A stretch of 64,000 nucleotides of DNA from a virus (lineage: Duplodnaviria; Caudoviricetes), in the IMG/VR virus record IMGVR_UViG_3300025838_000023, positions 42,783 through 106,782 of that record. The stretch is one strand, 5' to 3'. Below, one piece after another: positions 21,817 to 44,417 of this stretch; positions within the stretch are counted from its first letter, which is position 1; the number at the start of each line of letters is the position of its first letter. The notes below the pieces were generated by a model. The model saw only the letters and a list, made by a program, of their open reading frames with translations, did not search any database and was not told the DNA's origin. Position numbers and translations under genes: made by a program.

Positions 21817-22557
21817 TTATTCTTTAAAAATTTTAATATGCGTTCTTGGAATAGCATTAAAAGTGAAAACCGCATAACATATTTTCGGAATCTGGACAAA
21901 TGCCATATCTAAAAAATACTCTTCATCAGTATTAAAATTTGGTGATACTTCTAATGCAATCATATCCTCCACATTTTTATTTTTATCTTTTGCCAACATT
22001 TCTTTTAATTTGGGAATGCATTTTTCTGGATCATTTGTAATAAATAAATAAATTCGATTTCCTTGATGTGAAAATGTTGTTCTACTATCCTTCGCACAAA
22101 GCCCAATTTTCATTATTTTATCCAATATACTTTTTTCCGTTATATGAAACATTCTAATTTTATTCATAGGAAATTTAAGAACAACAGGAAATTTTGGTTC
22201 CATTTGATATAACTTTGTAATACTTCCTTTATAATTAAAATTTAAATCTTGTTTTGCAATAAAATATCCACATTGATCTAAAATTCTTTGCATTTCTTTT
22301 AGATCATTAAAATCTTGGTCAAAAATAAAAACTACAGTATTTGGATTTTTAAGCTGTGGGCGAGTTACATATCCAATTAAAAGATTGTCTTCCTCTATAT
22401 GAACGATTCTACCTTTAAAAGCATAATTCATTGCAGATTTAAAATTATCAGAACTATACGAAAATATCAAACCTTCTCGTAACATAACTTTTTGTTCCGT
22501 CCGTTGAAAGAACCTCGTATGTTTAAATATATTCTCCGCTAGTTCATCAAATTCCAT
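21817..22557 (-). CDS. ADP-ribosyltransferase / Tpt1-like fold protein
   Basis: MFHIT...I.K.GL...RIYLF...IP; paralog of 8489..9196; start MEFDELAE. Confidence 0.6.
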   Translation of the reverse strand: MEFDELAENIFKHTRFFQRTEQKVMLREGLIFSYSSDNFKSAMNYAFKGRIVHIEEDNLLIGYVTRPQLKNPNTVVFIFDQDFNDLKEMQRILDQCGYFIAKQDLNFNYKGSITKLYQMEPKFPVVLKFPMNKIRMFHITEKSILDKIMKIGLCAKDSRTTFSHQGNRIYLFITNDPEKCIPKLKEMLAKDKNKNVEDMIALEVSPNFNTDEEYFLDMAFVQIPKICYAVFTFNAIPRTHIKIFKE

Positions 22558-23204: not shown

Positions 23205-23225
23205 ATTTTCTCCTTTTGTTAAATT

Positions 23226-23659
23226 ACAGTTAGATAAAACATCAATTTTTATCTTTTTAAATGGGCAGGGACTGTAAGCTCCTACCAACCATAGAAGAAA
23301 GTGAATAACTTGGTGTTTATTCCGATCAACGAATACGGTTATGTATGCATAATACGGGTCTTCGGGTATTTCATAGGGTTACATACCTTTTCCGATTCGA
23401 CTATACATACACTGGTTAATTACAGTAATAAAACAATTTAATTTTCTGATAACCTATCTTACGATTAAACCTTTAGATTCTATCTTATTTTATACCTTAT
23501 CTTCCTCTTTTATTTTTGTTTCGAATATTAAAATACCCCCTCTCTTCTAATACTCTGTTCTTATTTAATCATAAATAATTTTTAAATCAACTACTATTTA
23601 CATTTAATTCATATCATTCCTTTATAAAAATGTATATTATATGCGACTAGTCGCTAACA
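23226..23659 (-). mobile_element. MITE family B copy 1 (434 bp, non-coding)
   Basis: near-identical to 42238..42671; TGT core at both junctions; palindrome GCGACTAGTCGC near the left end; 3' part reads GAYSP like a TnpB tail. Confidence 0.85.
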
Positions 23660-23696
23660 CACATAATATACGGTGTTTATTGTTTATAGTCAAGTT

Positions 23697-27981: not shown

Positions 27982-29223
27982 CTATTTTCTATTCTTGATA
28001 TCAGATAAAAGTTCTTCCAGAACCAAATTTAAGTTTTTAATTCCTAAATTCCCCTTTCCATGCACTCGCAAACCAACATTTTCATCTTCTACATCTCTAT
28101 CTCCAATTACTAACATAGTATGAGATTTTTCTTGTTCTGCCTTTCGTATCTTATTTTTAATGTTATCATTCGACAAATCAGATTTAACTCTAATACCACT
28201 ATACAATAATTTCATTTTAATAAATTCTGCATATTTCAGAACAGACTCGGTATTTTTAACCGTCATAATATTAATTTGTATTGGGGAAAGCCATAACGGA
28301 AAATTGCCATTATAATGTTCAATAAGAAATCCTATAAATCTTTCATGTGTACCCAATGGAGCACGATGAATACATAAAGGAGTTTCCTCAGTGTTATTTT
28401 CAGTTTTATATTTTAAATTGAATCTAGCAGGAACAGCAAAATCTATTTGGTTTGTGGCAAGAGTGAATTCTTTTCCTGCCGTTGACCAAACTTGAACATC
28501 AATTTTAGGACCATAAAATGCAGCTTCATTAGGAACTTCAACAAAATTAATACCACTTTTAATTAAAGCATTACGTAACATATCCTCGGTTTTCTTCCAT
28601 AATTCAGGAGAGTCTACAAATTTCTGGCCGAGTTTAGATGAGTCGTGAGTAGAAAACCGCATTAAATATTTTTCAATACCAAAGATTTTAAAATATTTGA
28701 GATACATTTCATTAACTGCATTGAATTCTTTTTCAAATTGATCTTCGGTACAATAAATATGTGCATCATTCATTTGCATACTTCTTACTCGCATTAATCC
28801 AAAAAGTTCTCCTGATTGTTCATAACGATAACAAGTCCCATATTCAGCAAGTCGTAAAGGTAAATCACGGTAGCTTCGAGGAGATGAACCAAATATTTTA
28901 TGATGATGTGGGCAGTTCATTGCTTTGAGATAATATTTCTCAATATTCCCACTCTCGCTTTCCATATTCATAAAAGGAAACATCCTATCCTCATAATATG
29001 GAAGATGCCCGCTTGTCAGATATAAATTTTCTCTAGCAATATGAGGGGTACGTACTCTATCATATCCCGCAAGAAATTCAGTTTCTTTTGCCAGTTTTTC
29101 AAGTTCTTCAATTAAAACCGTTCCACTTGGCAACCAAAGCGGAAGTCCTGCCCCCACATCATCATCAAAACAAAACAGTTTCAAAGTTTTCCCTATTTCC
29201 CTATGATCATTTATCTCTACCAT
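27982..29223 (-). CDS. thrS: threonyl-tRNA synthetase (catalytic and anticodon-binding domains only)
   Basis: DHREIG, KAMNCPHH, YRYEQSGELFGLMRVR, DAHI, AFYGPKID, IHRAPLGTHERF. Confidence 0.95.
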   Translation of the reverse strand: MVEINDHREIGKTLKLFCFDDDVGAGLPLWLPSGTVLIEELEKLAKETEFLAGYDRVRTPHIARENLYLTSGHLPYYEDRMFPFMNMESESGNIEKYYLKAMNCPHHHKIFGSSPRSYRDLPLRLAEYGTCYRYEQSGELFGLMRVRSMQMNDAHIYCTEDQFEKEFNAVNEMYLKYFKIFGIEKYLMRFSTHDSSKLGQKFVDSPELWKKTEDMLRNALIKSGINFVEVPNEAAFYGPKIDVQVWSTAGKEFTLATNQIDFAVPARFNLKYKTENNTEETPLCIHRAPLGTHERFIGFLIEHYNGNFPLWLSPIQINIMTVKNTESVLKYAEFIKMKLLYSGIRVKSDLSNDNIKNKIRKAEQEKSHTMLVIGDRDVEDENVGLRVHGKGNLGIKNLNLVLEELLSDIKNRK

Positions 29224-31366: not shown

Positions 31367-31447
31367 TGGTATTCCAGAAAGGACTTGCACCTTCATGAAT
31401 TCTATTTACTCTTTCTAAAGTTTAGGAAACTTAGGAGATACTGGAAT
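31367..31447 (-). tRNA. atypical tRNA-Arg(CCT), D arm absent
   Basis: acceptor ATTCCAG/CTGGAAT, loop TT-CCT-AA; same scaffold as 41344..41425. Confidence 0.6.
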
Positions 31448-31456
31448 ATTTAAAAT

Positions 31457-31532
31457 TGGTGCTCACGATAGGTCTTGCACCTACACTGTCAACGTTCTCA
31501 ACGTTGTTTCTCTGCTTTTGGAATACGTAAGC
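31457..31532 (-). tRNA. tRNA-Leu(GAG), short V arm
   Basis: CAACG-TTGAGAA-CGTTG, ACCA. Confidence 0.8.
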
Positions 31533-31747
31533 ATATTATCAATTAGAGTTTTCTCTATTGTTTGAAATTCTACATTCCAAACAATCAAAAGTATCAAAAT
31601 TATTTCCTTTATTTGGTTCACTTTCCCAAGATATTTCATGGCCGCATTCTAAAGTAATAATATATCCTTCATGAAAAGATCGATACTTACTAACTCTTTT
31701 ATATCCAGCAATTGTCCAACAATCTATTTTTGTATTTTTCATAAATT

Positions 31748-31835
31748 TGGCGGAACGCTAAGGACTTGCACCCTAAACCATTTCTAGTTCCAATTGATTT
31801 CCAATCAATGTTCAACCTTGTTGAATTAACGTTCC
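31748..31835 (-). tRNA. tRNA-Ser(GGA)
   Basis: ATTGA-TTGGAAA-TCAAT, long V arm, GCCA. Confidence 0.8.
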
Positions 31836-32765
31836 ATTTAAATTTTTCTTCTCATATACTGGCAAAAACATTTGAGATTCTTCAAAACTCTTATGCACTA
31901 AAGAAATTCCATTTTTCACACTATCTTCAATATCCCTCATAAATGGTGTCTGCCCTTTCGTATCCTTATTACCAGTTATATCTAGATAAGAATATATTAA
32001 ATTTATTGCCATCTCTTCCAATGCATTAACGTTCATCTTCTCTAAATCATCAATAAGAGATAAACTATAACGAAAAATCTTATCATCAATAGTTATTTTT
32101 ATTCTCTCATCAATAACAAATAAGAAATCTGTAGGAAACCTTACAAATATTTTCTTATCAGGAAGAGATTTTTGTAATATTTCCTGAAGTTTTCTTTCAA
32201 ATTCAAATTGTTCAGATATTGTCATTTTATTCTTCGTCAAAAATATCTCCACCGTTTAAATATGCATCAACTTCTTCAACAATAACATTCCATATTTCAT
32301 CTTCCGCTTCCGCACCATGCATCTTTTTAATATCCTTAATCATCCCATTGTCCCATTCTACTGTCATTACTGCACCATCAACAGTAATAGCCCTACGCTG
32401 ATACTCCTTGTTTGATGTAGTATTCATGTTCTTCAATCCAAATACATGCCCTGGAAATTCTTCTCTCAATATCTCTAAAATTTTCATACTAGTATATTAT
32501 CACAAGGATTTGAATTATCAATATCATTTTCAGATAATTGTTTTCTAATTTCAGATATAAACAAATCTATAATATATTGTTCCATATTCAATCCATAATA
32601 AAATTTGGCATCATCCACCATATCCTCATTCCAAGAAATTTTCATCTTCCTGCCATCAATCATTAAATACTTTCTAGGTGCAAAATCATTAAGTTGAATT
32701 TCATATTCTTTCAACTCTATAACATGATCAGGAAAGTGGTTTCTTAATACTTCTAATATATCCAT
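31812..32765 (-). other. three small hypothetical ORFs; 32227..32487 and 32484..32765 are paralogs
   Basis: MKILEILREEFPGHV vs MDILEVLRNHFPDHV. Confidence 0.65.
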
Positions 32766-32803
32766 TACAATATTATATCAGAAATTATTAACTTGTCAAA
32801 ATT

Positions 32804-32879
32804 TGGTCCGGTATCTGAGTGCTGCCCTCAGTATCTCCTGATCCCAAGTCAGGCGGATTTGCTGTCTTCCTCATACCGG
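32804..32879 (-). tRNA. tRNA-Pro(TGG)
   Basis: CCTGA-CTTGGGA-TCAGG, ACCA. Confidence 0.85.
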
Positions 32880-32888
32880 ATATAAAAT

Positions 32889-32972
32889 TGGTGCGTAGGG
32901 AGAGAATTTGCACTCTCACAGAATTAACGGGTGTTTTACAGACACTTGGACTCACTCTTGTCCAGCCGACGC
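32889..32972 (-). tRNA. tRNA-Tyr(GTA)
   Basis: loop CT-GTA-AA; near-copy of 41506..41588. Confidence 0.75.
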
Positions 32973-32984
32973 AATAAAAATTAT

Positions 32985-33239
32985 AATCTTAGTAATAGCC
33001 GATTTTCTGTATCTAGTTTTCTCATTTGACTATGTAATATTACTATCACATCTCCCCGTTTATAGAGAAGCGCACCAACCCGAAGATTAAAACGATCAGC
33101 ACCAATCTATCTTCTGTTTGGCTTGCACCGTAACCATCGTGGTATTAACAAGTATTACTACTCTCCCATCGGTTCTGCTGTGGTGTATCGAACTTCCTCT
33201 GCAATCCTTTGAAAGGTGCAGCGAGAAACTGCCAAGATT
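32985..33239 (-). ncRNA. rnpB: minimal RNase P RNA (~255 nt)
   Basis: P1 AATCTTGG/CTAAGATT; CR-I GAGGAAGTTCG; GGTGCAAG; AGTCAAATG; CR-V ACAGAAAATCGGCTAT. Confidence 0.85.
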
Positions 33240-33245
33240 AAAGTT

Positions 33246-33321
33246 TGGAGCCTGTTGAAAGACTTGCACTTTCCATATTTGAATTACCGATTCAATACAT
33301 CGCTATCTATGTTTAACAGGC
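33246..33321 (-). tRNA. tRNA-Thr(GGT)
   Basis: TTGAA-TCGGTAA-TTCAA (C at position 33), TCCA. Confidence 0.75.
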
Positions 33322-33331
33322 GTTTAAAAAT

Positions 33332-33473
33332 TGGTAGTTCGTGACGGATTCGCACCCTCATGTGTCATAATTTATTCTATAGTTGAATAAACAACACCAA
33401 ACGCTTTTAGTCTACCATTTTATTGCAAGTTTACGTAATTTTGCAATGATTTCGTGACGTTTAAGCTACAACT
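33332..33473 (-). ncRNA. tRNA-ended RNA with an internal multi-hairpin domain
   Basis: AGTTGT/ACGAACT-ACCA, T arm GAGGG-TGCGAAT-CCGTC, GTCA/TGAC helix enclosing two hairpins. Confidence 0.5.
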
Positions 33474-33496
33474 TATTGGCATATATTATTAAAAAT

Positions 33497-33571
33497 TGGC
33501 CGCTGATAGATTATTTGCAAATCTCTCTATGGTGTTTCAAGCCATTACATTCCTACATATGTTAACCAGCG
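33497..33571 (-). tRNA. tRNA-Phe(GAA), divergent paralog overlapping the end of the endonuclease ORF
   Basis: D arm identical to 34403..34477; loop TT-GAA-AC. Confidence 0.6.
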
Positions 33572-34337
33572 ATAAAAAAGTTTCTTTAGAATCACATTTA
33601 AGGAGTTTCTTATAAATATCTTCTTTAATTATCTTAACTTTATTAATAGATTCAGGATTCTGTTCAAATACTAATTTCATTTTGTTTTCATCGTCTCCCC
33701 ACCAGTAACCTTTAATTTCTAAATAAAAATCATAATCAACTAAATGAAAATCTGGAGTATACGAATGTTCACACTCATCTTTAATATAAGAGAAAGTGTA
33801 ATTATTAGTCCCTATTTTCTTCCAAGAAATTTCCAATTCTTCCATTTTAAGTGCAATATTTCGTTCCCATGTTCCTTGAACTTTTTGACCACTTACTTCA
33901 TACCATTTACATCTTCCACCTTTATTTTTCACCGACATTATTTTACTTAACTTTTTCTTGGTTTCTAAAGTATGTTTATGATTTTTCCAATATGGGGTAT
34001 TTTCGGTATAAAACTTTTTAACAGACAAAGCATTTTGCATCACTCTAGAATCTGTTTCTTTTGATAACCCTTTATTCCAAGCTACATGAGTTCCTTTAGT
34101 AATTGAAACAAACCCTATACCATTTTCATGTTTTCTCCATATATGACTACCTATTCCTGATTTAGTTGTTGATTTGAATTCACATTTCGGACAAATATAG
34201 TATCCATCTATAAACATATCATCTGTTATTTTCCTATGAACTTTCTTATTAGGGTTATTACATGCCTTTTTATGTGCTTTGATATTCGAATTTGATATCA
34301 TTCTATTACAATAAGGGCATTCGGTTTTTTGTCTCAT
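33537..34337 (-). CDS. free-standing homing-type endonuclease (zinc fingers, NUMOD-like repeats, PD-(D/E)XK domain)
   Basis: CPYC..H, CPKC..H, AWNKG, HTLETKKK, YTPDF...LEIKG. Confidence 0.75.
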   Translation of the reverse strand: MRQKTECPYCNRMISNSNIKAHKKACNNPNKKVHRKITDDMFIDGYYICPKCEFKSTTKSGIGSHIWRKHENGIGFVSITKGTHVAWNKGLSKETDSRVMQNALSVKKFYTENTPYWKNHKHTLETKKKLSKIMSVKNKGGRCKWYEVSGQKVQGTWERNIALKMEELEISWKKIGTNNYTFSYIKDECEHSYTPDFHLVDYDFYLEIKGYWWGDDENKMKLVFEQNPESINKVKIIKEDIYKKLLKCDSKETFLSLVNICRNVMA

Positions 34338-34402
34338 ATAATATATTTAACACATTCATATGAAATAAGTCTAACTCTTATCTATTAAAGCTATATTCAA
34401 AT

Positions 34403-34477
34403 TGGTGGCTGGAGAGGTATTTGCAACCCCCTGTATGGATTTTCAGTCCACCACATTCCTACATATGTTATCCAGCC
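34403..34477 (-). tRNA. tRNA-Phe(GAA)
   Basis: GTGGA-CTGAAAA-TCCAT, ACCA. Confidence 0.85.
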
Positions 34478-34489
34478 ATTTTTAAATTG

Positions 34490-34765
34490 TTATATTTTAT
34501 TTTGCATATAATCAGGAAATTTTATTGCAATCCCCTCTCCTTCATTTTCTCCAATTTCCCATCCATAACTGCAATAACTACTAAAATGTGTCTTTTCTTT
34601 ATATCCTACTACATAATCTGTTGGCACGGTATGAGGAATATAAACAGTCACAAATTCCCCGTATCCACAATCTTTTTTAATCCCCACACAAGACATTCCA
34701 TCATGTTCAGTAATAAACATATCTTCCGCATTAAACTCAATTGTCATTTTTAATTCGTATTTCAT
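34490..34765 (-). CDS. hypothetical protein
   Basis: ORF with an upstream TTGACA-17-TATAAT-like promoter. Confidence 0.6.
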   Translation of the reverse strand: MKYELKMTIEFNAEDMFITEHDGMSCVGIKKDCGYGEFVTVYIPHTVPTDYVVGYKEKTHFSSYCSYGWEIGENEGEGIAIKFPDYMQNKI

Positions 34766-34812
34766 GTTGATATTATATTACAAAATTACATAATGTCAAT
34801 ATGATTTTAAAT

Positions 34813-34916
34813 TGGAGGGCTTCAACAGGAACTTACCCTGTTCGTATTGTAACATAATCAATCTCGATCTTTCGAAGATTCACTCAGTATGATTATGGTA
34901 TACTACAATTTCGCCC
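34813..34916 (-). ncRNA. tRNA-ended RNA with a long rod replacing the D and anticodon arms
   Basis: GGGC/GCCC-TCCA, T-like arm AACAGG-GTAAGTT-CCTGTT, rod ATTGTAG/TTACAAT plus CATAATCA/TGATTATG. Confidence 0.5.
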
Positions 34917-34924
34917 ATTTAAAT

Positions 34925-35105
34925 TGGTTCTAGAGGTTAGATTCACACTAACTTAGTCTTGTCGAAGGTTTTAATTTTTGACTACTTAAAGCTTCTATAA
35001 ATTATTTTCTCGTAGTATGCCATGATAATACTCTTTGGACGCAATACTCATAATTTACTTACAGCAACTCTAAATTATAGGCGGGTTGAAATGTGTCACT
35101 CAGAA
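34925..35105 (-). ncRNA. tRNA-ended RNA with a ~135-nt internal domain
   Basis: TTCTGAG/CTCTAGAA-CCA, T arm GTTAG-TGTGAAT-CTAAC. Confidence 0.45.
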
Positions 35106-35171
35106 CATTGCAATCTTCTCAAGCACCTTTTTATTGGCTAATCGAATTCGCCACGCCGATCTTGAAAATTA

Positions 35172-35523
35172 TGGTGGAGAGCAGGGAGGATCGAACTCCC
35201 TGTCCTAAAAAAACTTCATTTATATATCTACATGCTTATATTCTTTAATGTATTCGGTAGCATAACAAAGAATAAAACTTTCTACCATAGTTAAATTATT
35301 TTCTAGCATCCGTCTCACAAATATAACGAGAAACTCGACGGACTATCCTATGCAGCACGTTTTCAAATATAGGAGTCTTTGAAACGTGGATTAACTTAAG
35401 CAGCTAACGCTAGTTCTGTATTATCAGCACTTATCTTTTCGATTGATTTTTAAAGAAGCCAACAATCATCTTCTACATGCAACAATAAACTCGATCTTTT
35501 TAGTCGAATCCAAGTAGCTCCCC
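35172..35523 (-). ncRNA. ssrA: tmRNA, tag (A)ADNTELALAA*
   Basis: 5' GGGGAGC...GGATTCGAC; G3:U70; 3' GGGAGTTCGATCCTCCC-TGCTCTCCACCA; tag codons 35396-35428. Confidence 0.95.
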
Positions 35524-35528
35524 AAAAA

Positions 35529-35603
35529 TGGTAGGCATGGAAGAAATTGCATCCTCACCAAGAGCTTCGTAAACTCGTGTGCTATCTGTTACACTACACG
35601 CCC
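35529..35603 (-). tRNA. tRNA-Arg(ACG)
   Basis: loop TT-ACG-AA, ACCA. Confidence 0.8.
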
Positions 35604-35727
35604 ATTTAAAATTCTTCGCTAAAAATAATACCTACCAAGGCACTAAGGAATTGAACCATTTATTCTTAGCGAAAAGTAATTGTAATAAGTTCTAGAATAT
35701 TTCAATTACTTTCTTTTATATAAAATT

Positions 35728-35803
35728 TGGTAGGCATGGAGAGAATCCCACTCTCACCCTTCGGTTTCGAAGACCGATGCGCTAATAATTACGCTACACG
35801 CCC
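35728..35803 (-). tRNA. tRNA-Arg(TCG)
   Basis: TCGGT-CTTCGAA-ACCGA, ACCA. Confidence 0.85.
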
Positions 35804-35810
35804 ATAAATT

Positions 35811-35885
35811 TGGGGGTTTAGTTCGGTTACTCTCCGAATCCGGTAAATTCACAGTTTACAGTGCTAATATTACACCACAAAACCC
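35811..35885 (-). tRNA. tRNA-His(GTG)
   Basis: GTAAA-CTGTGAA-TTTAC; G-1 opposite C73. Confidence 0.85.
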
Positions 35886-35899
35886 ATCTAAAAACTTTT

Positions 35900-36042
35900 G
35901 GCATTGTATTTCCGCTATACGAAAAGCTAATATTCGTCATAACCACTACTCACAATCAGAAGATATCATTCCGATATTCTATAGTGGGGTTGGCTTATTT
36001 GATTCCCATTAACTTTAAAGGATTCGAACCTTTGATTCTGCC
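35900..36042 (-). ncRNA. circularly permuted tRNA-like RNA, unit 2
   Basis: order: GGCAG, T arm AAAGG-TTCGAAT-CCTTT, AAAGTTAAT...ATTAGCTTT acceptor-like helix, D arm GTAT-AGCGGAA-ATAC, ATGCC. Confidence 0.7.
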
Positions 36043-36168
36043 TTATTATCTAAATTCATCCAAAACTTACCGTAGTCGTATTGCAAATCCGAGCCTATGC
36101 AGTTTTGGCAGTATTATATGTTATGGAGTCCACGTTCCACTCCCGTAACCTTTATAATACTGAAATTT

Positions 36169-36316
36169 GATGCCCTGCTACCATTACACCACAGATACCA
36201 CAAATCGTCATAACCAGCTACTATATCATATGATCATCTCTGATACTTCGTAGTGGGGTAGGCTTACTTGATTCATTGTTTATATACATGAACGGACTCG
36301 AACCGTTTCTTTCACC
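36169..36316 (-). ncRNA. circularly permuted tRNA-like RNA, unit 1
   Basis: order: GGTGA, T arm AACGG-TTCGAGT-CCGTT, CATGTAT...GTATCTG, D-like GTGTAATGGTAGCAG, GCATC; shares the cap motif with unit 2. Confidence 0.62.
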
Positions 36317-36336
36317 TTACATTCTTAAAAAATTAC

Positions 36337-36423
36337 CGGATGGCTGATATCCCGCCTACCATGCCCTTTTAGAGCACCATCGATTTAGCAAATCGCGCTA
36401 GTCACTCGACTAGTTAACCATCC
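36337..36423 (-). tRNA. tRNA-Ser(GCT), degenerate T arm, no encoded CCA
   Basis: loop TT-GCT-AA, V arm TGCTCT-AAA-AGGGCA. Confidence 0.55.
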
Positions 36424-36573
36424 ATATTAAAAAATTCTGAGTAAATATCAATCTCCCATAGGAGACAAATGTTATAGCTTTATTACATTAAGATTTGTTG
36501 TTACCATAAAAGCAATACTCTCACAACTCTAATCCGATTATTACTCAACGTTATCCGCTAAGATAACGAAAAT

Positions 36574-36660
36574 TGGAGTGTAGTTAGGGGATCGCACCCT
36601 ACGTAGGCTTTCGCCCAACTGGTTTGCAAGCAGCAAAGTTCACTAGCTCTCTCACTACAC
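36574..36660 (-). tRNA. tRNA-Cys(GCA) with long V arm
   Basis: acceptor GTGTAGT/ACTACAC, U73-CCA, loop TT-GCA-AA, V arm TGGGC-GAAA-GCCTA. Confidence 0.7.
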
Positions 36661-36735
36661 ATTAAAAGTGACCCGCTAATATTTTACAACCATATGCAGG
36701 GCTGGTTGGATATGATTACTACCATATCAAAATTA

Positions 36736-37011
36736 TTACCATGTTACATTTCCATCTTTAATCCATCCATGAAACTTACAACTACTATCTGGAAAATCAC
36801 AGTTAATAGAAGGAGTTACTGATAGATTTGAAATGTCTCCAGATTTATTCCAAACTGCTCCAGAATCATAAATAGGCGGCAATTCAAAATTAACTAAAAT
36901 AGAATGTCCAGAATCGCATTTCGGACAAACAAATCTTAATACTTTATCCGATCTTTCATTGTATCGAATCATCTCACCTTCTAGTTTCTCTAATGATACT
37001 AAATTACTCAT
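36736..37011 (-). CDS. small Cys/His protein, DUF6527-like
   Basis: F.CP.C...H, W...G...LSVTPSI...C.FHGWI.DG. Confidence 0.7.
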   Translation of the reverse strand: MSNLVSLEKLEGEMIRYNERSDKVLRFVCPKCDSGHSILVNFELPPIYDSGAVWNKSGDISNLSVTPSINCDFPDSSCKFHGWIKDGNVTW

Positions 37012-37154
37012 ACTATTATTTAGCAAACTTTTAATCCTTATAAATTCATATCAAAGATAAAACTTCATAAATATTAAAACCATTGCTAATAGATAAATAA
37101 CTATATGAATAAAGATACCATACTTCTAGAAGAATTATATATGAAAATCGTAGA

Positions 37155-37522
37155 AGAGTTATCATAAGCATAGAAGAATATTACTATTTTCTAGATTTAT
37201 GCCTTAAAGACTTTTTATTCTATTTTATAGGATTTAAAAGGAAATCTATAACTCAATTTAGATTTCTTTAATTTGGAATATAACGTTTCTATGAACCAAT
37301 TTTAGTATTTGATCTACCATTTTCTTCCAATGAGTAGGTAGAATACTAAAACCAATTCAAAGATATTTTATATCCATTTTATCATCTTTCAATGATAAAA
37401 ATTGTTTTATTATAATAGTATTTATTCTACTTTATATCAAAATCAAGAGATAAATAATTTAAATTGTATAATATTTTTAACTTATCTTAAAAATGTTATA
37501 TTATGTATTAAGTTTTATTAGA
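37155..37522 (-). mobile_element. MITE family A copy 2
   Basis: near-identical to 20635..21019 with small indels; AGA/TCT core at both junctions. Confidence 0.9.
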
Positions 37523-37864
37523 CCAATTCGGAAATGCTACTCTCATATGGCTAGAAAAAGATGGAACAGTTTATGATACAGAAGAAACCCAACATGGAAT
37601 CTACGTAGCGGATAATGCCTCTTTATTTGGCGTGAATTATAACTTCGCAAAAAAGACTTTCGATAAATATGGAGACGAAGGAATTGATGAAGCAGCAGCA
37701 ATAATGTGTGAACAAGCCTTCAAAAAAGGTTGGATGCGTGTTGTTAAAGTGCCTTGGAATAAAAAGATTTTCGTCGAAGGAAACGAACCAACAAAAGCAC
37801 AAAAACATGTAATCGAAGATTGGTATTTCGAAGATACTAGTTGGGATGTCATTTGGCAAAGATG

Positions 37865-39097
37865 GGTTGGTAACAGTAGTTTGAAATTCTAAAAAATCTA
37901 AAGTTATAAAAATAATTCATTATTATGGGTTAAATTACAAGAAAAGTAAAACACATTTAGATAAATATAAATGTGAAGATAATAAGAGCAGTTAAATGCA
38001 CAAACAAATTTGCTACTAAAAAGAAGCAAGATGTTCTTACATCTTTACTTGCCGAATACGGCAATGTTGTAAATTTCTTCATTGAATTCTTTTGGTTAAA
38101 AGATAAACTTCCAACTAAGAACGATCTTTTAAAACATATAGTTGATCTACCAATACAAACAACTTGGCTTTCAGCCAGATTACGTAAAACTGCTGCTAGA
38201 GAAGCTATAGATATGATCTTAGCAGTAAAAGAAAGATGGAAAGATAAACCAGATAAAATAAATAAACCAACACACCAAGGTAAAAGAATGTGCTGTTCTT
38301 CAACAATAGCAGAACTCCAAAACTCAAAATCTTCATTCGATAAATACCTTAAAATAGGTTCTGTTGGTAAGAAAATTAAACTAGAAATACCAATCAAAAA
38401 ACATAAACAGTTTAATTATTGGGAACGTCAAGGCAGACGCCTTAACTCATATATTATAACTAAAGACTATACTCAGTTCGTTTTCGAAATCGAAACTGGA
38501 ACTAAAAAGGATCAAGGTAAAACAATTGGTATTGATACTGGTATTAAATGTCTAGCAACTCTGTCCAATGGACAAAGAATAGGAGACAAAATAGAAGATA
38601 TAATAATTAAAATCAATAGATGCAAACATGGTTCTAAAAGACAAAAGCAATTAAGGAATTATCTACGTCATTATATTGATACTAGTGCAAAAGAAGTTTT
38701 TAAGCAGAATCCTAATTTGAGTAGGATTATAGTCGAAAGACTAAGTAATATGAATTTTAAATCGAAGATTAAGCGTAAGCTTGGTCGTAAGATGAGAAAA
38801 ACTATCGGTAGTTGGAACTACAGATATTGGCTATCTAGAATGGAAAGAAACTGTGAGGAGAACCGTGTTCGATATTCCAGTATAAATCCAGCTTATACGA
38901 GTCAATGCTGTAACCAATGTGGTCATACTGACAGGATGAATCGATCAAAACAAGATACTTTTTATTGTGTTAAATGTGGTCATACTGACCATGCTGACCA
39001 TAATGCAGCTAAGAATATTTTGGATCGTGGAATCTCCCTAGTTTATCGTCGGGGGTAATAGTTTAAATTTTAGATTTTTTAGAATTTAAACAACGGT
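37865..39097 (+). mobile_element. tnpB-only element (IS607-like) with perfect 19-bp subterminal inverted repeats
   Basis: AAATTCTAAAAAATCTAAA 37884-37902 and its complement 39069-39087; GGT at both junctions; left end ambiguous by 4 nt. Confidence 0.75.
37973..39058 (+). CDS. tnpB: TnpB with zinc ribbon
   Basis: IGIDTG, IVERL, PAYTSQCCNQCG, CVKCG, HADHNAAKNI. Confidence 0.92.
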   Translation: MKIIRAVKCTNKFATKKKQDVLTSLLAEYGNVVNFFIEFFWLKDKLPTKNDLLKHIVDLPIQTTWLSARLRKTAAREAIDMILAVKERWKDKPDKINKPTHQGKRMCCSSTIAELQNSKSSFDKYLKIGSVGKKIKLEIPIKKHKQFNYWERQGRRLNSYIITKDYTQFVFEIETGTKKDQGKTIGIDTGIKCLATLSNGQRIGDKIEDIIIKINRCKHGSKRQKQLRNYLRHYIDTSAKEVFKQNPNLSRIIVERLSNMNFKSKIKRKLGRKMRKTIGSWNYRYWLSRMERNCEENRVRYSSINPAYTSQCCNQCGHTDRMNRSKQDTFYCVKCGHTDHADHNAAKNILDRGISLVYRRG

Positions 39098-39155
39098 CAG
39101 TAATCAATTCGGACCACCAAAACCAATCACTCTGTTCAACGCAGAATAAAAAAAT

Positions 39156-39246
39156 TGGCGGAAGACTGAGGAGTTGCGCCCCAAACCTTTTAGAGTTCCT
39201 TCTGTTTTCAAGGCAGAGTCAGTATCGCTTGTCTGATTAATCTTCC
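39156..39246 (-). tRNA. tRNA-Ser(TGA)
   Basis: loop CT-TGA-AA, long V arm, GCCA. Confidence 0.8.
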
Positions 39247-39263
39247 ATAATAAAATTTAAAAT

Positions 39264-39337
39264 TGGTAGGAGATAAAAGTGCCGCCCTTTTGACTCATGG
39301 ATGTAAACCAAGCATTATACTGTTTAACTAATCTCCC
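39264..39337 (-). tRNA. tRNA-Val(TAC)
   Basis: loop TT-TAC-AT, ACCA. Confidence 0.8.
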
Positions 39338-39348
39338 ATTACTAAATT

Positions 39349-39424
39349 TGGAAGACCCACCCCGATTTGCACGGAAGGACGATGAAGTTCAAAGCTTCAT
39401 ATGCTACTTTTACATCATGGGTCT
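39349..39424 (-). tRNA. tRNA-Gln(TTG)
   Basis: TGAAG-CTTTGAA-CTTCA, TCCA. Confidence 0.85.
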
Positions 39425-39434
39425 ATTAAAATCT

Positions 39435-39521
39435 TAGAAGTGTACGGTAATGCTCCGTATCGAGGCCCCAATCTAGGACAAAAAGTTTATAAAACTTTCT
39501 TGGCTACTTAGCCACACTTCC
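39435..39521 (-). tRNA. atypical tRNA-Ile(TAT), long V arm, no encoded CCA
   Basis: AAAGT-TTTATAA-ACTTT, T arm TACGG/CCGTA. Confidence 0.65.
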
Positions 39522-39530
39522 ATTTAAAAT

Positions 39531-39608
39531 TGGTTGCGGAAGGGCCGAACTCGAATCGGGCAGTTTTAGCTTATGAGACTAACGTGTTTACCTTGACACT
39601 ACCCCGCA
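39531..39608 (-). tRNA. tRNA-Met(CAT)
   Basis: TTAGT-CTCATAA-GCTAA, ACCA. Confidence 0.8.
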
Positions 39609-39617
39609 ATATAAATC

Positions 39618-39694
39618 TGTAAACCCCATCATGGAATCGCACCACAATTCTGTCTTTCAGAGAGACTCGTAATAACTGTTATACGAATGGGGTA
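39618..39694 (-). tRNA. tRNA-Gln(CTG)
   Basis: loop CT-CTG-AA; 3' end is not CCA. Confidence 0.65.
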
Positions 39695-39701
39695 TAAAAA
39701 C

Positions 39702-39812
39702 TTGCGGAGATGGGATTCAAACACCATCATAGCATATTAATCATTTTGCGAACAATTAATACTATTTGCCAGAGTTATGAGCACTGTTAGCCTCTCAGGG
39801 CTTGTCTCCGCT
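39702..39812 (-). tRNA. tRNA(CAT) with a ~40-nt variable hairpin
   Basis: GCGGAG/CTCCGC acceptor, loop CT-CAT-AA, V hairpin ATAGTATTAATTG...TGATTAATATGCTAT. Confidence 0.6.
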
Positions 39813-39832
39813 ATTTAAAAACTTTAAAAATT

Positions 39833-39918
39833 TGGTAGCAGAAAAGAGAATTGCACTCTTACAGTCTTACGACAATTGCTTATGAAACAATCCCCACACT
39901 AATACGGGTTGCTCTGCC
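39833..39918 (-). tRNA. tRNA(CAT), Met or Ile2, long V arm
   Basis: ATTGT-TTCATAA-GCAAT, ACCA. Confidence 0.7.
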
Positions 39919-40035
39919 ATTTTTCAAAAATTGTAACCTTTACTAAAATTTTGGCACAATGCCTATGCTTAGTTAATAATACAAACTTCGAAAACTTGTA
40001 TTTAAAACTCTTACATAACATCATATTAAAAAATT

Positions 40036-40111
40036 TGGTGGACCGTAAGGGATTCGCACCCTTCACACAAATATTGCAAGTATTCATCGCCCCTGTGGAA
40101 CATGACAGCCC
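40036..40111 (-). tRNA. tRNA-Ala(TGC)
   Basis: G3:U70, loop CT-TGC-AA. Confidence 0.8.
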
Positions 40112-40194
40112 ATATTAAAAATTTGTTGTAGTATCGAGAATCTACTACATTTATCTTCCGAATTTAACGGACGAATCTCGTCGTTTAAAGAAAT

Positions 40195-40274
40195 TGGTGG
40201 AGAATATCGGCATCGAACCGATCTGAAAATTTCTGATTGCAAATCAGACGATCACCCAAGCAATCCCATCCCCC
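40195..40274 (-). tRNA. tRNA-Ala(TGC)
   Basis: TCTGA-TTTGCAA-TCAGA, ACCA. Confidence 0.8.
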
Positions 40275-40284
40275 ATATAAAAAT

Positions 40285-40377
40285 TGGCACCAAGACTAGG
40301 ACTCGCACCTAGATACCGTTCAAGACGGATTACACGAAGGTAACAACTTCGCCACTTACTAGTTAGTGTATCTTGGT
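40285..40377 (-). tRNA. tRNA-Asn(GTT) with long V arm
   Basis: CGAAG-TTGTTAC-CTTCG, V arm CCGT/ACGG, G73-CCA. Confidence 0.7.
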
Positions 40378-40384
40378 ATAAAAT

Positions 40385-40459
40385 TGGCTCCAACGCTAGG
40401 TTCTGCCCCTAGACCGTCTCGCTTAACAGGCGAATGGACTACTGTTATCCCACGTTGGA
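40385..40459 (-). tRNA. tRNA-Asn(GTT)
   Basis: TTCGC-CTGTTAA-GCGAG, GCCA. Confidence 0.85.
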
Positions 40460-40467
40460 ATTTAAAT

Positions 40468-40543
40468 TGGCACCGTTGACAGGACTCGCACCCGCTAAAA
40501 ACAGCTTGAAAAACTGCTCACTCGACTCTTTGTATTCAACGGC
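40468..40543 (-). tRNA. tRNA-Glu(TTC)
   Basis: GCAGT-TTTTCAA-GCTGT, GCCA. Confidence 0.75.
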
Positions 40544-40607
40544 ATAAAATTTGATCATAAATGTATATTTGCACCCACATTTTAATATAAATTGATTAAA
40601 TATAAAT

Positions 40608-41354
40608 ATGAAGGTTCAATTCAAACATACAGAAGAATCAAAAGCAAACTTAAGTATAAAACGGAAAGAATGGCTTAAAAATAATCCTGATAAACATCCT
40701 TGGAAACGTCATGATAAATTTAAATCAAAACCATGCGAAAACGCAAAACAGTTTTTGAGAGATAATAATATTCCATTCATTGAAGAATATACTCCAGAAA
40801 ATATAGATAGAAATTATTCTATTGATATTGCATTACCTGATAAAATGATTTCTTTGGAGATAAACGGTAATCAACATTATAATCGAGACGGAACATTAAA
40901 ACCTTATTATCAGGAAAGACAAGATATATTAGAAAAAGCTGGATGGATAGTATACCAAATACATTATTCTGCATGTTTTAATCTTGATAAGTGGAAAGAT
41001 TTTTTTAATATACTTAAATATGCTGTGGTTAAAGTCGATTTCGATTATTTTACATATGTTCCTAAGAAATTAGAAAGAAAAACACTACATGATAAATGTG
41101 GTTGTGGTAATAAAAAACTTATTAAGTCTAAAAATTGTTTTATATGTAATAATAAAATGCCTAAAATATATAAAAGAAAAACTGTTAGACCAACAAAAGA
41201 ATTACTTACAAAATTAATATGGGAAAAACCATTAACTAAAATAGGAAAAGATTTTAATGTAACCGATAATGCTATAAGAAAATGGTGTAAATTATATAAC
41301 ATAACAGAATTTCCAAAACGTGGATATTGGCTGAAATCTAAATTGGTAAACTAG
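40608..41354 (+). CDS. free-standing homing-type endonuclease (NUMOD3, Vsr/DUF559-like nuclease, zinc finger, HTH)
   Basis: HTEESKANLS, YSIDIA...LEINGNQHY, GW.V..I, IGKDFNVTDNAIRKWCK. Confidence 0.75.
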   Translation: MKVQFKHTEESKANLSIKRKEWLKNNPDKHPWKRHDKFKSKPCENAKQFLRDNNIPFIEEYTPENIDRNYSIDIALPDKMISLEINGNQHYNRDGTLKPYYQERQDILEKAGWIVYQIHYSACFNLDKWKDFFNILKYAVVKVDFDYFTYVPKKLERKTLHDKCGCGNKKLIKSKNCFICNNKMPKIYKRKTVRPTKELLTKLIWEKPLTKIGKDFNVTDNAIRKWCKLYNITEFPKRGYWLKSKLVN

Positions 41355-41425
41355 ATGGGACTTGCACCCCACATGTTTTCTAATTACTCTTTCACCTGTT
41401 TAGAAGACAGAGGAGATACTAGTTT
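41344..41425 (-). tRNA. atypical tRNA-Arg(TCT), D arm absent
   Basis: CTGT-CTTCTAA-ACAG, extended V region, ACCA. Confidence 0.65.
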
Positions 41426-41428
41426 GTT

Positions 41429-41496
41429 TGGAGCCGTATAGGATATTGCAATCCTCCTGCTATATTACGAGTATAGGCTGTGTGCTTACATACGGC
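41429..41496 (-). tRNA. tRNA-Thr(CGT), reduced D arm
   Basis: CTATA-CTCGTAA-TATAG; identical to 43269..43336 except position 34. Confidence 0.75.
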
Positions 41497-41505
41497 ATAG
41501 AAAAT

Positions 41506-41588
41506 TGGTGCGTAGGAGAAGAATTTGCACTTCCACAGATTAACGGGTGTTTTACAGACACTTGGACGCACTCTTGTCCATCCTACGC
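41506..41588 (-). tRNA. tRNA-Tyr(GTA)
   Basis: loop CT-GTA-AA, ACCA. Confidence 0.8.
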
Positions 41589-41601
41589 ATAATTAAATTC
41601 C

Positions 41602-41674
41602 CGGTATGGACGAGTGCTGCCCTCGCTTAAACTTGATTGACAATCAAGTATCGATGCTGTTCGAACTCCATACC
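41602..41674 (-). tRNA. tRNA-Asp(GTC), no encoded CCA
   Basis: CTTGA-TTGTCAA-TCAAG, G73. Confidence 0.75.
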
Positions 41675-41748
41675 ATTAAAAATTGGTCAAGTTATGTAGA
41701 TTGCCTCCACTACTAAGGTTTACTTGCACGACCTAGCTATATTTAAAT

Positions 41749-41822
41749 TGGCGCGACATAGGGGTTACGCTCCCCTGACTCCTCTTGGACAGAGAGATAG
41801 GTTACTATTACTTCAATGTCGC
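41749..41822 (-). tRNA. tRNA-Asp(GTC)
   Basis: TCTCT-CTGTCCA-AGAGG, GCCA. Confidence 0.85.
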
Positions 41823-41831
41823 ATTTAAAAT

Positions 41832-41907
41832 TGGTAGCCTCAGATGGATTTTCACCATCTTCTAAAGGTTGAGAACCTATGATCCTGTGTCATTAGACGA
41901 TGAGGCC
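41832..41907 (-). tRNA. tRNA-Glu(CTC)
   Basis: loop TT-CTC-AA, ACCA. Confidence 0.8.
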
Positions 41908-41915
41908 ATTTAAAT

Positions 41916-41991
41916 TGGTCGGATACCAGAGAATCGCACTCTGTCACCCCACTTCCAAGGCGGGTAAGCACACTTGCGCTATTCGTATCCG
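41916..41991 (-). tRNA. tRNA-Pro(TGG)
   Basis: CCCGC-CTTGGAA-GTGGG, ACCA. Confidence 0.8.
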
Positions 41992-42000
41992 TTATAAAAT

Positions 42001-42681
42001 TGGTTTTCGTTGCAGCTTTCGACTCTGCTATAGTAGCTACAAATGCGATGTGCTAATGCTACCGTGTTTCCCATGCAATGCCTCTCATATACCCTTTATG
42101 GTATTGTCACTGATTTATTATAAGTGCCTGTCTAGCCTTTCTACTAGCTCACGTTTTTTATGGTTAGCCCATCGCATTGTTACACTTTATCTTCTATCAG
42201 CGTTTTACATATACTATCTATTACCCACATATACTATACAGTTAGACAAAACATCAATTTTTATATTTTTAAATGGGCAGGGACTGTAAGCTCCTACCAA
42301 CCATAGAAGAAAGTGAATAACTTGGTGTTTATTCCGATCAACGAATACGGTTATGGATGCATAATACGGGTCTTCGGGTATTTCATAGGGTTACATACCT
42401 TTTCCGATTCGGCTATACATACACTGGTTAATTACAGTAATAAAACAATTTAATTTTCTGATAACCTATCTTACGATTAAACCTTTAGATTCTATCTTAT
42501 TTTATACCTTATCTTCCTCTTTTATTTTTGTTTCGAATATTAAAATAACCCCTCTCTTCTAATACTCTGTTCTTATTTAATCATAAATAATTTTTAAATC
42601 AACTACTATTTGCATTTAATTCATATCATTCCTTTATAAAAATGTATATTATATGCGACTAGTCGCTAACACTAAACGAAA
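42001..42681 (-). ncRNA. ~250-nt tRNA-ended structured RNA split near its 5' end by MITE B
   Basis: acceptor TTTCGTT/AACGAAA-ACCA, helix TATAGTA/TACTATA, T-like arm GCAG...CTGC, internal 15-nt long-range pairing. Confidence 0.6.
42238..42671 (-). mobile_element. MITE family B copy 2 (434 bp)
   Basis: near-identical to 23226..23659, same length, TGT core. Confidence 0.85.
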
Positions 42682-42685
42682 TTGT

Positions 42686-42769
42686 TGGCACGGAAATGAG
42701 GTAACGCTCCCCTTAGTATGAATACGCTAGTTTTGGAGACTAGATGCAATCCTTCTTGCGAGTTTCCGT
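42686..42769 (-). tRNA. tRNA-Trp(CCA), extended V region
   Basis: CTAGT-CTCCAAA-ACTAG, GCCA. Confidence 0.8.
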
Positions 42770-42778
42770 ATGATAAAT

Positions 42779-42871
42779 TGTTACAACGGGTGGGCTTCGC
42801 TCCCACGGTGAGGCTTGTAACCTGTCGGATTAAAAGTCCGATACTTTCGACTGGACTAAGTGAACCGTTGC
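42779..42871 (-). tRNA. tRNA-Lys(TTT) with long V arm
   Basis: TCGGA-CTTTTAA-TCCGA, V arm AGGTT-ACA-AGCCT; 3' ACA. Confidence 0.7.
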
Positions 42872-42879
42872 ATTAAAAG

Positions 42880-42954
42880 TGGTGGGGTCACGGGGACTTG
42901 CACCCCGACTTAACGATTTAAAAGACCGTTGTGCAGCTATTACACCATAACCCC
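42880..42954 (-). tRNA. tRNA-Lys(TTT)
   Basis: ACGGT-CTTTTAA-ATCGT, ACCA. Confidence 0.85.
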
Positions 42955-42966
42955 ATTATAAAAATT

Positions 42967-43045
42967 TGGTGGAATCGGAGGTAGTTGCAACCTCACGAAT
43001 GGTCTAGTTAAGAGCTAGTTGCCCGTCTACTGTAGCTTCGATTCC
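42967..43045 (-). tRNA. tRNA-Lys(CTT)
   Basis: CTAG-CTCTTAA-CTAG, ACCA. Confidence 0.8.
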
Positions 43046-43090
43046 TTTTGTGTCGTTATTTTTCTATGGTTGAAAAAATAACACTAAAAT

Positions 43091-43165
43091 TGGAGCACAT
43101 GATGGGTATCCCGCCCACATAAACTTCTTTGGAAGAGAAGCGCATTAGTTGTCTGCCACATGTGC
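43091..43165 (-). tRNA. tRNA-Gly(TCC)
   Basis: CTTCT-CTTCCAA-AGAAG, TCCA. Confidence 0.85.
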
Positions 43166-43173
43166 ATTAAAAT

Positions 43174-43261
43174 TGGAGCCTACAGAGGGACTCGCACCCC
43201 CGGTGAACCTTGCGGTTACAAGCTTACAAAGCTAGTCCTATCGCTACTAAGGGATGTAGGC
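43174..43261 (-). tRNA. tRNA-Thr(TGT) with long V arm
   Basis: loop TT-TGT-AA, V arm AACC-GCAA-GGTT. Confidence 0.75.
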
Positions 43262-43268
43262 ATTAAAT

Positions 43269-43336
43269 TGGAGCCGTATAGGATATTGCAATCCTCCTGC
43301 TATATTACAAGTATAGGCTGTGTGCTTACATACGGC
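43269..43336 (-). tRNA. tRNA-Thr(TGT), reduced D arm
   Basis: CTATA-CTTGTAA-TATAG, TCCA. Confidence 0.75.
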
Positions 43337-43348
43337 ATTAATAAAATC

Positions 43349-43420
43349 TAGCGCATAAGGGTTATGCTCCCTTGTCTATTCCTTGAAGGGGAATCGTCCT
43401 AGCTATTAGACGAATGCGCC
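43349..43420 (-). tRNA. tRNA-Glu(TTC), no encoded CCA
   Basis: ATTCC-CCTTCAA-GGAAT. Confidence 0.75.
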
Positions 43421-43429
43421 ATTTAAAAT

Positions 43430-43505
43430 TGGTAGTTCTAGAGTTGGTTGCAAACTCATCCATAATTTCTTGAGAATTATCGCTCTGCTCTTGGCGTATA
43501 GAACC
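43430..43505 (-). tRNA. tRNA-Leu(CAA), short V arm
   Basis: TAATT-CTCAAGA-AATTA, ACCA. Confidence 0.75.
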
Positions 43506-43516
43506 ATTTTTGAAAT

Positions 43517-43591
43517 TGGTGCCTATGGAGAGATTTGCACTCTCACTGTTCGGTGTCTAAGGCCGATTTCTCTGCATTGGAATACATAGGC
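43517..43591 (-). tRNA. tRNA-Leu(TAG), short V arm
   Basis: loop CT-TAG-AC, ACCA. Confidence 0.8.
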
Positions 43592-43638
43592 ATGTGTTAT
43601 TAATATTTTCTATAGTTGGAAATATCAAAACTAAAAAT

Positions 43639-43713
43639 TGGTGCTCATAGTCGGTCCCGCCCCGACACTGTTCGAATTTTAAGTTCGATTTCTCTGCGTT
43701 GGAATATATGAGC
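43639..43713 (-). tRNA. tRNA-Leu(TAA), short V arm
   Basis: TCGAA-CTTAAAA-TTCGA, ACCA. Confidence 0.85.
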
Positions 43714-43723
43714 ATTTTGAAAT

Positions 43724-43802
43724 TGGTTGCGGGGAGTGAAAATTGCATTCACTGTCAAGAAGCTTATGAGACTACTGCTGGTCTACTCCAGTCCACCCTG
43801 CA
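43724..43802 (-). tRNA. tRNA-Met(CAT), initiator-like ends
   Basis: loop CT-CAT-AA, 3' CCCCGCAACCA. Confidence 0.75.
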
Positions 43803-43809
43803 TATAAAT

Positions 43810-43885
43810 TGGTCCCTCGTGTTGGCTTTGCTCCAACCACCTAACGGTTATCAACCATTTGCTCTCCTGAATGAGCTAACGAGGG
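43810..43885 (-). tRNA. tRNA-Ile(GAT)
   Basis: AATGG-TTGATAA-CCGTT, ACCA. Confidence 0.85.
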
Positions 43886-43894
43886 ATTAAAATT

Positions 43895-43968
43895 TGGAGC
43901 GGGTAATCGAAATCGAATCGATATTTTCGCCTTGGCAAAGCAACGTAATACCACTATACCATACCCGC
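43895..43968 (-). tRNA. tRNA-Gly(GCC), first tRNA of the array
   Basis: GCGGGTA/TACCCGC, loop TT-GCC-AA, TCCA. Confidence 0.9.
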
Positions 43969-44417
43969 AAATTTTTATTTAGGTTAACATTAAGAATTTA
44001 TTCAGAAGGTATATATCATTCTACCCATTATTGGATGGGTATGTTAGCCTAAGAAATTGTGAGACTTGCCAATAATTTTATATAATTGGCAAGTCTCTTT
44101 TGGGAATACTGCCGAAATTTTTAAGGTTTGGCAGTATTCCCAAAGTTTTGTTACAGTTTGTTATGAACTAGTGGTATGGGTTTCACGCCATTTGACTAAT
44201 TCCTGTAACGGTTTAACTATAAAGAACAAACACCTATTATTCCGAGTTTCGCTATTTCTATTGATAAGCCGATTTCTCTTTCGAGGGTGTGTCGGACATT
44301 CGTTTCGCTTCTGGTTGAAACTCTCAAAACTCCTTTTAAATTTCCTAAATGGCCTACTATATTTCGGTGTTCCACGTATTCAATTATATGTAATTAAAAT
44401 TATTATATTTTTGCAAT

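Follow-up and report, generated by a model that had tools for sequence, protein, structure and literature searches.

The window analyzed here, the 3′ 64 kb of a 106.8-kb IMG/VR virus record, belongs to a T4-like phage whose genes in this stretch include a T4-type tail-sheath stabilizer, GroEL, a ThrRS core, a CCA-adding enzyme, and a standard tmRNA (35172–35523) with the tag ADNTELALAA. The ThrRS gene (27982–29223, minus strand) encodes 413 aa comprising the catalytic core and the anticodon-binding domain, matches thrS positions 171–563, and lacks the N-terminal part; the CCA-adding enzyme carries an HD domain and is encoded on the plus strand at 59718–61235. An array of tRNA genes runs on the minus strand from about 44.0 kb to 31.4 kb (31400–44000), and about 30 of its units share one ending, CCA followed by ATTT (the CCAATTT signature). 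ARAGORN calls only 10 tRNAs within the window and Rfam 11–13—these low counts are due to the unusual T-loops of most array units, many of which read TGCAA or TGCGA in place of TTCRA. Mobile DNA is abundant in the array, where a TnpB gene, homing-endonuclease-like ORFs, and further repeat families are found.

The unit that concerns us (42681–42001, minus strand) exactly fills the gap between two cloverleaf tRNAs of this array. The upstream neighbor is a tRNA with a CCA anticodon (42686–42775, minus strand), and the unit starts 4 nt (ACAA) past the CCA end of that tRNA. Its first seven nucleotides, TTTCGTT (42675–42681), form seven Watson–Crick pairs out of seven with AACGAAA (42011–42005), which is followed by a discriminator A and an encoded CCA (42004–42001), so that the acceptor 3′ strand with its tail spans 42001–42011; the first-pass annotation had described just such a perfect acceptor stem with ACCA. 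Beyond the ACCA lies the array spacer ATTTTATAA, of the AATTT type common to array units, and then the next cloverleaf tRNA. Between the two acceptor strands the unit is split by a repeat of at most 436 nt; with the repeat removed, the RNA would measure 245–250 nt.

Directly 5′ of the acceptor 3′ strand is the T-like arm mentioned in the first pass (42028–42012), a 4-bp stem GCAG/CTGC closed by the loop AGTCGAAAG. In tRNA numbering the loop holds G54, U55, C56, G57, and A58, with a closing mismatch A53·G61. Compared with the tRNA standard, the arm has a stem of 4 rather than 5 bp, a G at position 54, and a pair probability of 0.13–0.6, while the U55-C56-R57-A58 core is kept. The 3′ strand of a helix adjoining the T arm, TACTATA (42029–42035), can be read immediately next to it; its proposed partner is TATAGTA (42232–42238), of which ATAGTA is independent of how the two sides of the insertion are joined. 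The linker between the acceptor and this partner would be TAGTG (42670–42674) under the joint discussed below, of which only TA (42674–42673) lies surely outside the repeat. A second long tRNA-like unit is found elsewhere in the array (34925–35074, minus strand, 150 nt), with an acceptor TTTAGAG/CTCTAGA containing one G-U pair, a T arm GTTAG-TGTGAAT-CTAAC, an ACCA end, and a long hairpin at the place of the D and anticodon arms; it is called by neither ARAGORN nor Rfam and has no sequence similarity to the RNA described here.

Pairings of this kind should be weighed against chance. The acceptor stem is significant because of its position: a complementary 7-mer at its place in the array has p ~1e-3, given the array base composition and 11 allowed offsets. 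Combinations of an acceptor, a 4/5 T stem, and CCA are common when position is left free—an unconstrained scan of the window returns about 90 of them, and such a scan is therefore non-specific. These ~90 combinations are an argument for supposing that there is no RNA gene here at all, only chance pairings in AT-rich spacer DNA, or else that the DNA is coding through a 129-aa plus-strand ORF (41900–42289), which one gene caller predicts in one of the other assemblies of this phage (L039). We consider either version very improbable; the positional p-value of the acceptor counts against it, as does the long interior helix described below, which was reached in 0 of 1000 shuffles. The ORF itself was rejected as a gene: it lies antisense to two tRNA genes, extends into the repeat, is rich in Cys, and matches no Pfam family.

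The rest of the unit does not read as a tRNA. By direct reading there is no D stem 2 nt past the acceptor, no anticodon loop, and no variable loop; RF00005 gives no match at E<=10 across 42001–42681, and ARAGORN returns nothing on either of two reconstructions of the uninterrupted sequence, introns allowed. An 11-nt direct repeat ATAGTATATGT occurs twice (42237–42227 and 42217–42207, minus strand) and flanks a small hairpin, TAT-GTGGGTA-ATA; the GGG of its loop makes it a possible D-loop mimic, with a placement unlike that in tRNA. The direct repeat has a 20-nt period and lies directly beside the boundary of the mobile repeat (42207–42237), and it could be a small tandem duplication or an insertion-linked repair scar.

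One feature of the interior stands clearly beyond chance: a long-range helix in which 14 of 15 positions pair, with its 5′ arm at 42178–42164 and its 3′ arm at 42056–42042. This pairing had been noted in the first pass, and it holds up well—none of 1000 dinucleotide shuffles reached a helix 15 bp long (the median best helix was 9), and its pair probability is 0.95–1.0 in both reconstructions as well as in the 681-nt interrupted RNA. Its pairs are all Watson–Crick, with zero G-U pairs. The acceptor stem has a probability of 0.4–0.6 with the joint used in the first pass and 0.7–1.0 with a shorter joint; across the insertion, in the 681-nt RNA, it is again 0.7–1.0. A simple scan across the insertion finds no terminator-like site.

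Other proposed pairings fare less well. The TATAGTA/TACTATA helix exists as 7 bp with a TGT joint or a no-duplication joint, and as 6 bp whatever the joint, but its pair probability in the folding ensemble is only ~0–0.03; a second ATAGTA, supplied by the 11-nt direct repeat, competes for TACTATA and could pair with it at an almost equal energy (−46.3 vs −44.4 kcal/mol). The pairings CGCTGAT/ATCAGTG and AAGTGT/GCACTT, also put forward in the first pass, are not borne out: both are shorter than the typical best chance helix, have a probability of ~0, and cross the 14/15 helix, so that they are compatible with it only in a knotted structure. In fold energy, the intact 238-nt 3′ part does not stand out from shuffled sequences (z = −1.05). 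The description of the interior as structured thus rests on a single significant helix, and covariation adds nothing to it because no homolog was found in the collections searched.

Within the interior, a 16-nt stretch (42096–42111, minus strand) matches G000 22134–22149, outside the window, exactly (AGTGACAATACCATAA, E 0.005), so that this part of the RNA is the complement of the minus-strand mRNA of a YopX-like gene. The matching stretch falls within the coding region, and chance is the probable explanation.

The DNA that interrupts the unit is a non-coding repeat of at most 436 nt (42237–42672, minus strand), which splits it after about nucleotide 9–12. A second copy lies in the same orientation at 23225–23660, in a short spacer between two minus-strand genes and just upstream of a ribosome-binding site; the two copies match at 430 of 436 positions (99%) without gaps, are the only two in the 106.8-kb record, and both lie in the minus, that is, transcribed, orientation. 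The two copies have GTGT in common at one boundary and TGTA at the opposite one. TGT may have arisen by duplication of a 3-bp target or may serve an IS200/IS605-type element as its cleavage motif, and if it is a duplicated or cleavage core the element would be 428 nt plus one TGT; either reading gives the joint TTTCGTT-TAGTG-TATAGTA that had been proposed before. This joint is the most economical, and joints differing from it by 0–8 nt are also possible, there being no empty site in the collections.

The repeat had been called a MITE in the first pass; the terminal inverted repeats of a classical MITE are absent. The best subterminal inverted pair is AT-rich with 81% identity, TGT stands at both ends, and there are two copies only; near one end is a perfect palindrome, GCGACTAGTCGC (42655–42666). 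The repeat has no long reading frame and no Rfam match, guide-RNA families included, and its fold is not unusually stable (z = −0.38). It shows no detectable similarity to the TnpB genes of the window and their downstream regions, and tblastn with TnpB-like proteins found nothing significant. A remnant of a TnpB C-terminus was considered and rejected—it depended solely on a ‘GAYSP’ stretch in one frame, against the negative tblastn result. Neither a relative nor a parent element was found among GenBank phage records, in IMG/VR searches with patterns of both ends, or in the phage’s own record, and a 20-mer of the repeat has no relative in bacterial and archaeal genomes. An unrelated IMG/VR contig (L018, 4402–4420, minus strand) has 19 nt in common with the palindrome end (GTGTTAGCGACTAGTCGC plus one base), which may reflect chance or the end of a related element.

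The nearest model for the repeat is the group of non-autonomous IS200/IS605 elements known as PATEs. Like them, the repeat lacks terminal inverted repeats, has a perfect palindrome near one end, shows the short TGT core at both of its boundaries, and is inserted in one orientation. Unlike in these elements, no TnpB similarity, Rfam guide-RNA match, or parent accompanies the repeat, and two copies leave its ends undefined.

Group I introns occur in T4-like phages, and it is natural to ask whether either the ~190-nt interior or the 436-nt repeat could be a self-splicing intron whose removal would leave a normal tRNA. The transcribed orientation of both repeat copies would suit an intron, and the TGT ambiguity allows the ends of the repeat to be written as U|...G|. 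Against this, at E<=10 neither strand matches any intron family in Rfam, and group I in particular (RF00028) has no match on both strands across 41000–44200; the exons would sum to only ~55 nt, with no D arm, anticodon stem-loop, or variable loop; the second repeat copy lies in an intergenic spacer; and the fold of the repeat is not that of an unusually stable RNA. We therefore hold an intron-containing tRNA to be highly unlikely, and neither Rfam (E<=10) nor ARAGORN with introns returned one.

A resemblance to the tRNA-like domain of tmRNA had also been suggested, and in layout it is there: an acceptor with ACCA, a T arm, an abutting helix with no variable loop between, and a short unpaired linker in the place of the D stem, with crossing helices that can be drawn on paper. 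The interior also contains a 19-codon frame, MRWANHKKRELVERLDRHL, ending in the double stop TAATAA (42121–42180, minus strand). On this basis the unit could be another tmRNA-like RNA, divergent from the first, with a role in ribosome rescue or tagging. The resemblance does not extend beyond layout, however. The first three acceptor pairs are U1-A72, U2-A71, and U3-A70, so position 3:70 is U-A and the G3:U70 pair is absent, as had been noted at the outset; RF00023 finds nothing at E<=10 in the intact 238-nt 3′ part; ARAGORN, in its tmRNA mode (-m) too, is null on either reconstruction; and the crossing helices have a probability of ~0. A conserved D-loop analog is missing, and no frame read directly ends in a hydrophobic, degron-like tail, leaving no credible tag. 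The phage moreover already has its standard tmRNA, which is dissimilar in sequence. The candidate was rejected as a tmRNA, and we find a tmRNA-like role hardly likely at all. As for the 19-codon frame, the long helix takes up its ATG, a ribosome-binding site is missing, and the frame is likely a chance occurrence in AT-rich sequence.

The locus is not a misassembly: three independent assemblies of the same phage (L037–L039) span it and are 100% identical over 1100 nt, insertion included. Such same-phage contigs were reached through an identical 112-aa protein; near-identical records may be masked in pattern scans, and this identity look-up was the sole route to the same population. Every contig examined carries the insertion, and among those with the identical 112-aa protein there was no empty site or uninterrupted allele. 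Two further contigs of the same phage from other samples (L041, 9726–10360; L042, 5772–6406) end inside the repeat, 30 nt before its far end; in L041 the bases at that place are the variants of the other copy, the two copies having been collapsed during assembly.

Searches beyond this phage were likewise negative. No homolog of the RNA was found in GenBank phage records, and no paralog in the phage’s own genome. Exact and degenerate patterns run against IMG/VR gave no relative of the 3′ tRNA-like end or of the inverted-repeat pair, and for the T arm only seven chance matches in GC-rich coding DNA; a 22-mer beside the joint has no match in metagenome contigs. Related phages were located via the tail-sheath stabilizer and a 346-aa neighbor gene, with protein identities of 66% or less. 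In five such records, tRNA arrays included, BLAST, nhmmer, and a covariance model (R1) find no homolog; the sole BLAST match lies inside a coding region, the T-loops of their tRNA arrays are ordinary, and homologs of the 346-aa neighbor are not followed by a tRNA array. The missing homologs are weak evidence, because even the nearest phages share no more than 66% protein identity. The first-pass annotation had looked to homologs that conserve the acceptor and internal pairings, and to uninterrupted alleles in related phages; by that rule the idea is not confirmed. The absence of homologs cannot fairly be turned against the RNA either, and covariation neither supports nor contradicts it.

The closest parallels are found in other phages’ tRNA clusters. 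Stable tRNA-like RNAs of the T4 and T5 clusters have been known since the 1970s with no function assigned, and the role of T4 RNAC and RNAD is still listed as unknown in reviews and in a 2022 transcriptome study (PMC3014915, PMC9697503). T4 RNAC (‘species 1’, 139 nt; RNAD is ‘species 2’) has an acceptor-like stem at its ends, a T arm of canonical type, and two hairpins besides. Like the unit described here, it lies in register within a T4-like tRNA cluster, stacks an acceptor-like stem on a T arm, and has other hairpins instead of an anticodon arm. In contrast, the interior here is ~190 nt rather than ~100 nt; the T-loop is GUCGA on a 4-bp stem where RNAC has the canonical GGUUCGAAUCC; further differences are the encoded CCA, the mobile repeat inside the gene, and the lack of sequence similarity.

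T5 RNA1 (144 nt) and RNA2 (125 nt), annotated in AY543070 as ‘tRNA-like stable RNA with unknown functions’, also sit among tRNA genes and combine an acceptor stem and T arm with an enlarged, anticodon-less middle. They keep a clear D arm (Leu-type CCGGAAUUGGUAGACGGG in RNA1), whereas here no Leu-type D arm is seen and only the 3-bp hairpin with its GGG loop, not 2 nt after the acceptor, could stand in for one; again there is no sequence similarity. A search of the T4 and T5 loci with nhmmer and with covariance model R1 gives no homolog of the RNA. Rfam 15 run on the T4 (L021) and T5 (L022) tRNA regions returns tRNAs only, with no family for RNAC/RNAD, RNA1/RNA2, or the other T5 stable RNAs; a missing Rfam match for the present RNA is thus to be expected. 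The unit has the features by which these RNAs are described—a place among tRNA genes, an acceptor stem with a T arm, and no anticodon—and theirs is a class by description, not a homology family. It shares their setting and logic but not their sequence, with a larger interior and a weaker tRNA body.

Taken together, the unit most likely is, or until recently was, an RNA gene of ~245–250 nt. With moderate confidence, and going by anatomy and analogy, we read it as encoding a stable RNA of tRNA shape that lacks an anticodon, carries a cargo domain, and would be cut out by tRNA-processing enzymes, like T4 RNAC and T5 RNA1/RNA2; the gene is now interrupted. The earlier proposal of a structured non-coding RNA matured by tRNA enzymes is supported in its tRNA-like half by the in-register placement, the shared spacer, the 7/7 acceptor, the T-loop core, and the encoded CCA, and the phage’s own CCA-adding enzyme fits this reading; the structured interior stands on its one helix. 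Counting against it are the lack of homologs, the ordinary fold energy, the 4-bp T stem, and the lack of a convincing D arm.

An acceptor/T minihelix suffices for recognition by RNase P, and this knowledge, together with the anatomy, suggests how such a gene might work. The RNA would be transcribed as part of the polycistronic tRNA array, and its acceptor/T-arm minihelix would offer a grip to RNase P at the 5′ end and to the enzymes of 3′ trimming or CCA repair at the opposite end, so that the RNA could be cut out and stabilized as tRNAs are. The ~190-nt domain that replaces the D and anticodon arms, in which the 15-bp long-range helix would close several hairpins, would be the functional cargo. 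A non-autonomous mobile repeat of 428–436 nt would have inserted later, just past the acceptor 5′ strand and in the transcribed orientation. The interrupted RNA may be tolerated rather than destroyed, because both the acceptor stem and the long helix are predicted to fold with the insertion in place.

An insertion present in every sampled contig is, however, also what would be expected of a dispensable or dead gene. The main rival to a stable-RNA gene is accordingly a decaying relic: a former array tRNA or tRNA-like gene, of which only the acceptor and T arm survive, struck by the 436-nt repeat and maybe also by an earlier insertion whose ends would be the 15-bp inverted repeat (137 nt, 42178–42042), with no function of its own. 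An array so rich in mobile DNA is a plausible setting for this, and the failure to find homologs in the collections searched and the fold energy of z = −1.05 are in keeping with it; the pairing of the long helix, all Watson–Crick with no G-U, is as a DNA-level inverted repeat would be. Against it, the 7/7 acceptor, the encoded CCA, the spacer, and the T-loop core are intact. Neither the genome nor IMG/VR contains another copy of the 137-nt segment, which shows no clear target duplication, and deleting it still gives no cloverleaf. We regard a relic as possible but rather unlikely.

Returning to a gene for a stable RNA, a more elaborate two-part arrangement can be imagined, which we think improbable: a tRNA-shaped carrier of a 190-nt cargo, combined with a selfish IS605/TnpB-type repeat that bears a guide RNA. 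The repeat would profit from the strong transcription of the array and from tRNA-type processing sites close by to express its guide, whose first ~20 nt would be the flanking ATAGTATATGTGGGTAATAG. A guide derived from the flank would cut uninterrupted alleles of the same RNA gene and so would keep the insertion fixed; the 20-nt-period duplication beside the joint would then be a repair scar.

As a single orphan sequence, the unit carries modest weight. As a stable-RNA gene it would extend the kind known from T4 and T5 to an interior of ~190 nt and to a top half with no clear D arm, and it shows that such a gene can bear a mobile insertion that is fixed over several assemblies of one phage. Provided that it is expressed and processed, the RNA would allow the action of RNase P and of CCA enzymes across a 430-nt insertion to be tested, and would offer a natural example of a tRNA minihelix serving as a maturation handle for a large cargo.
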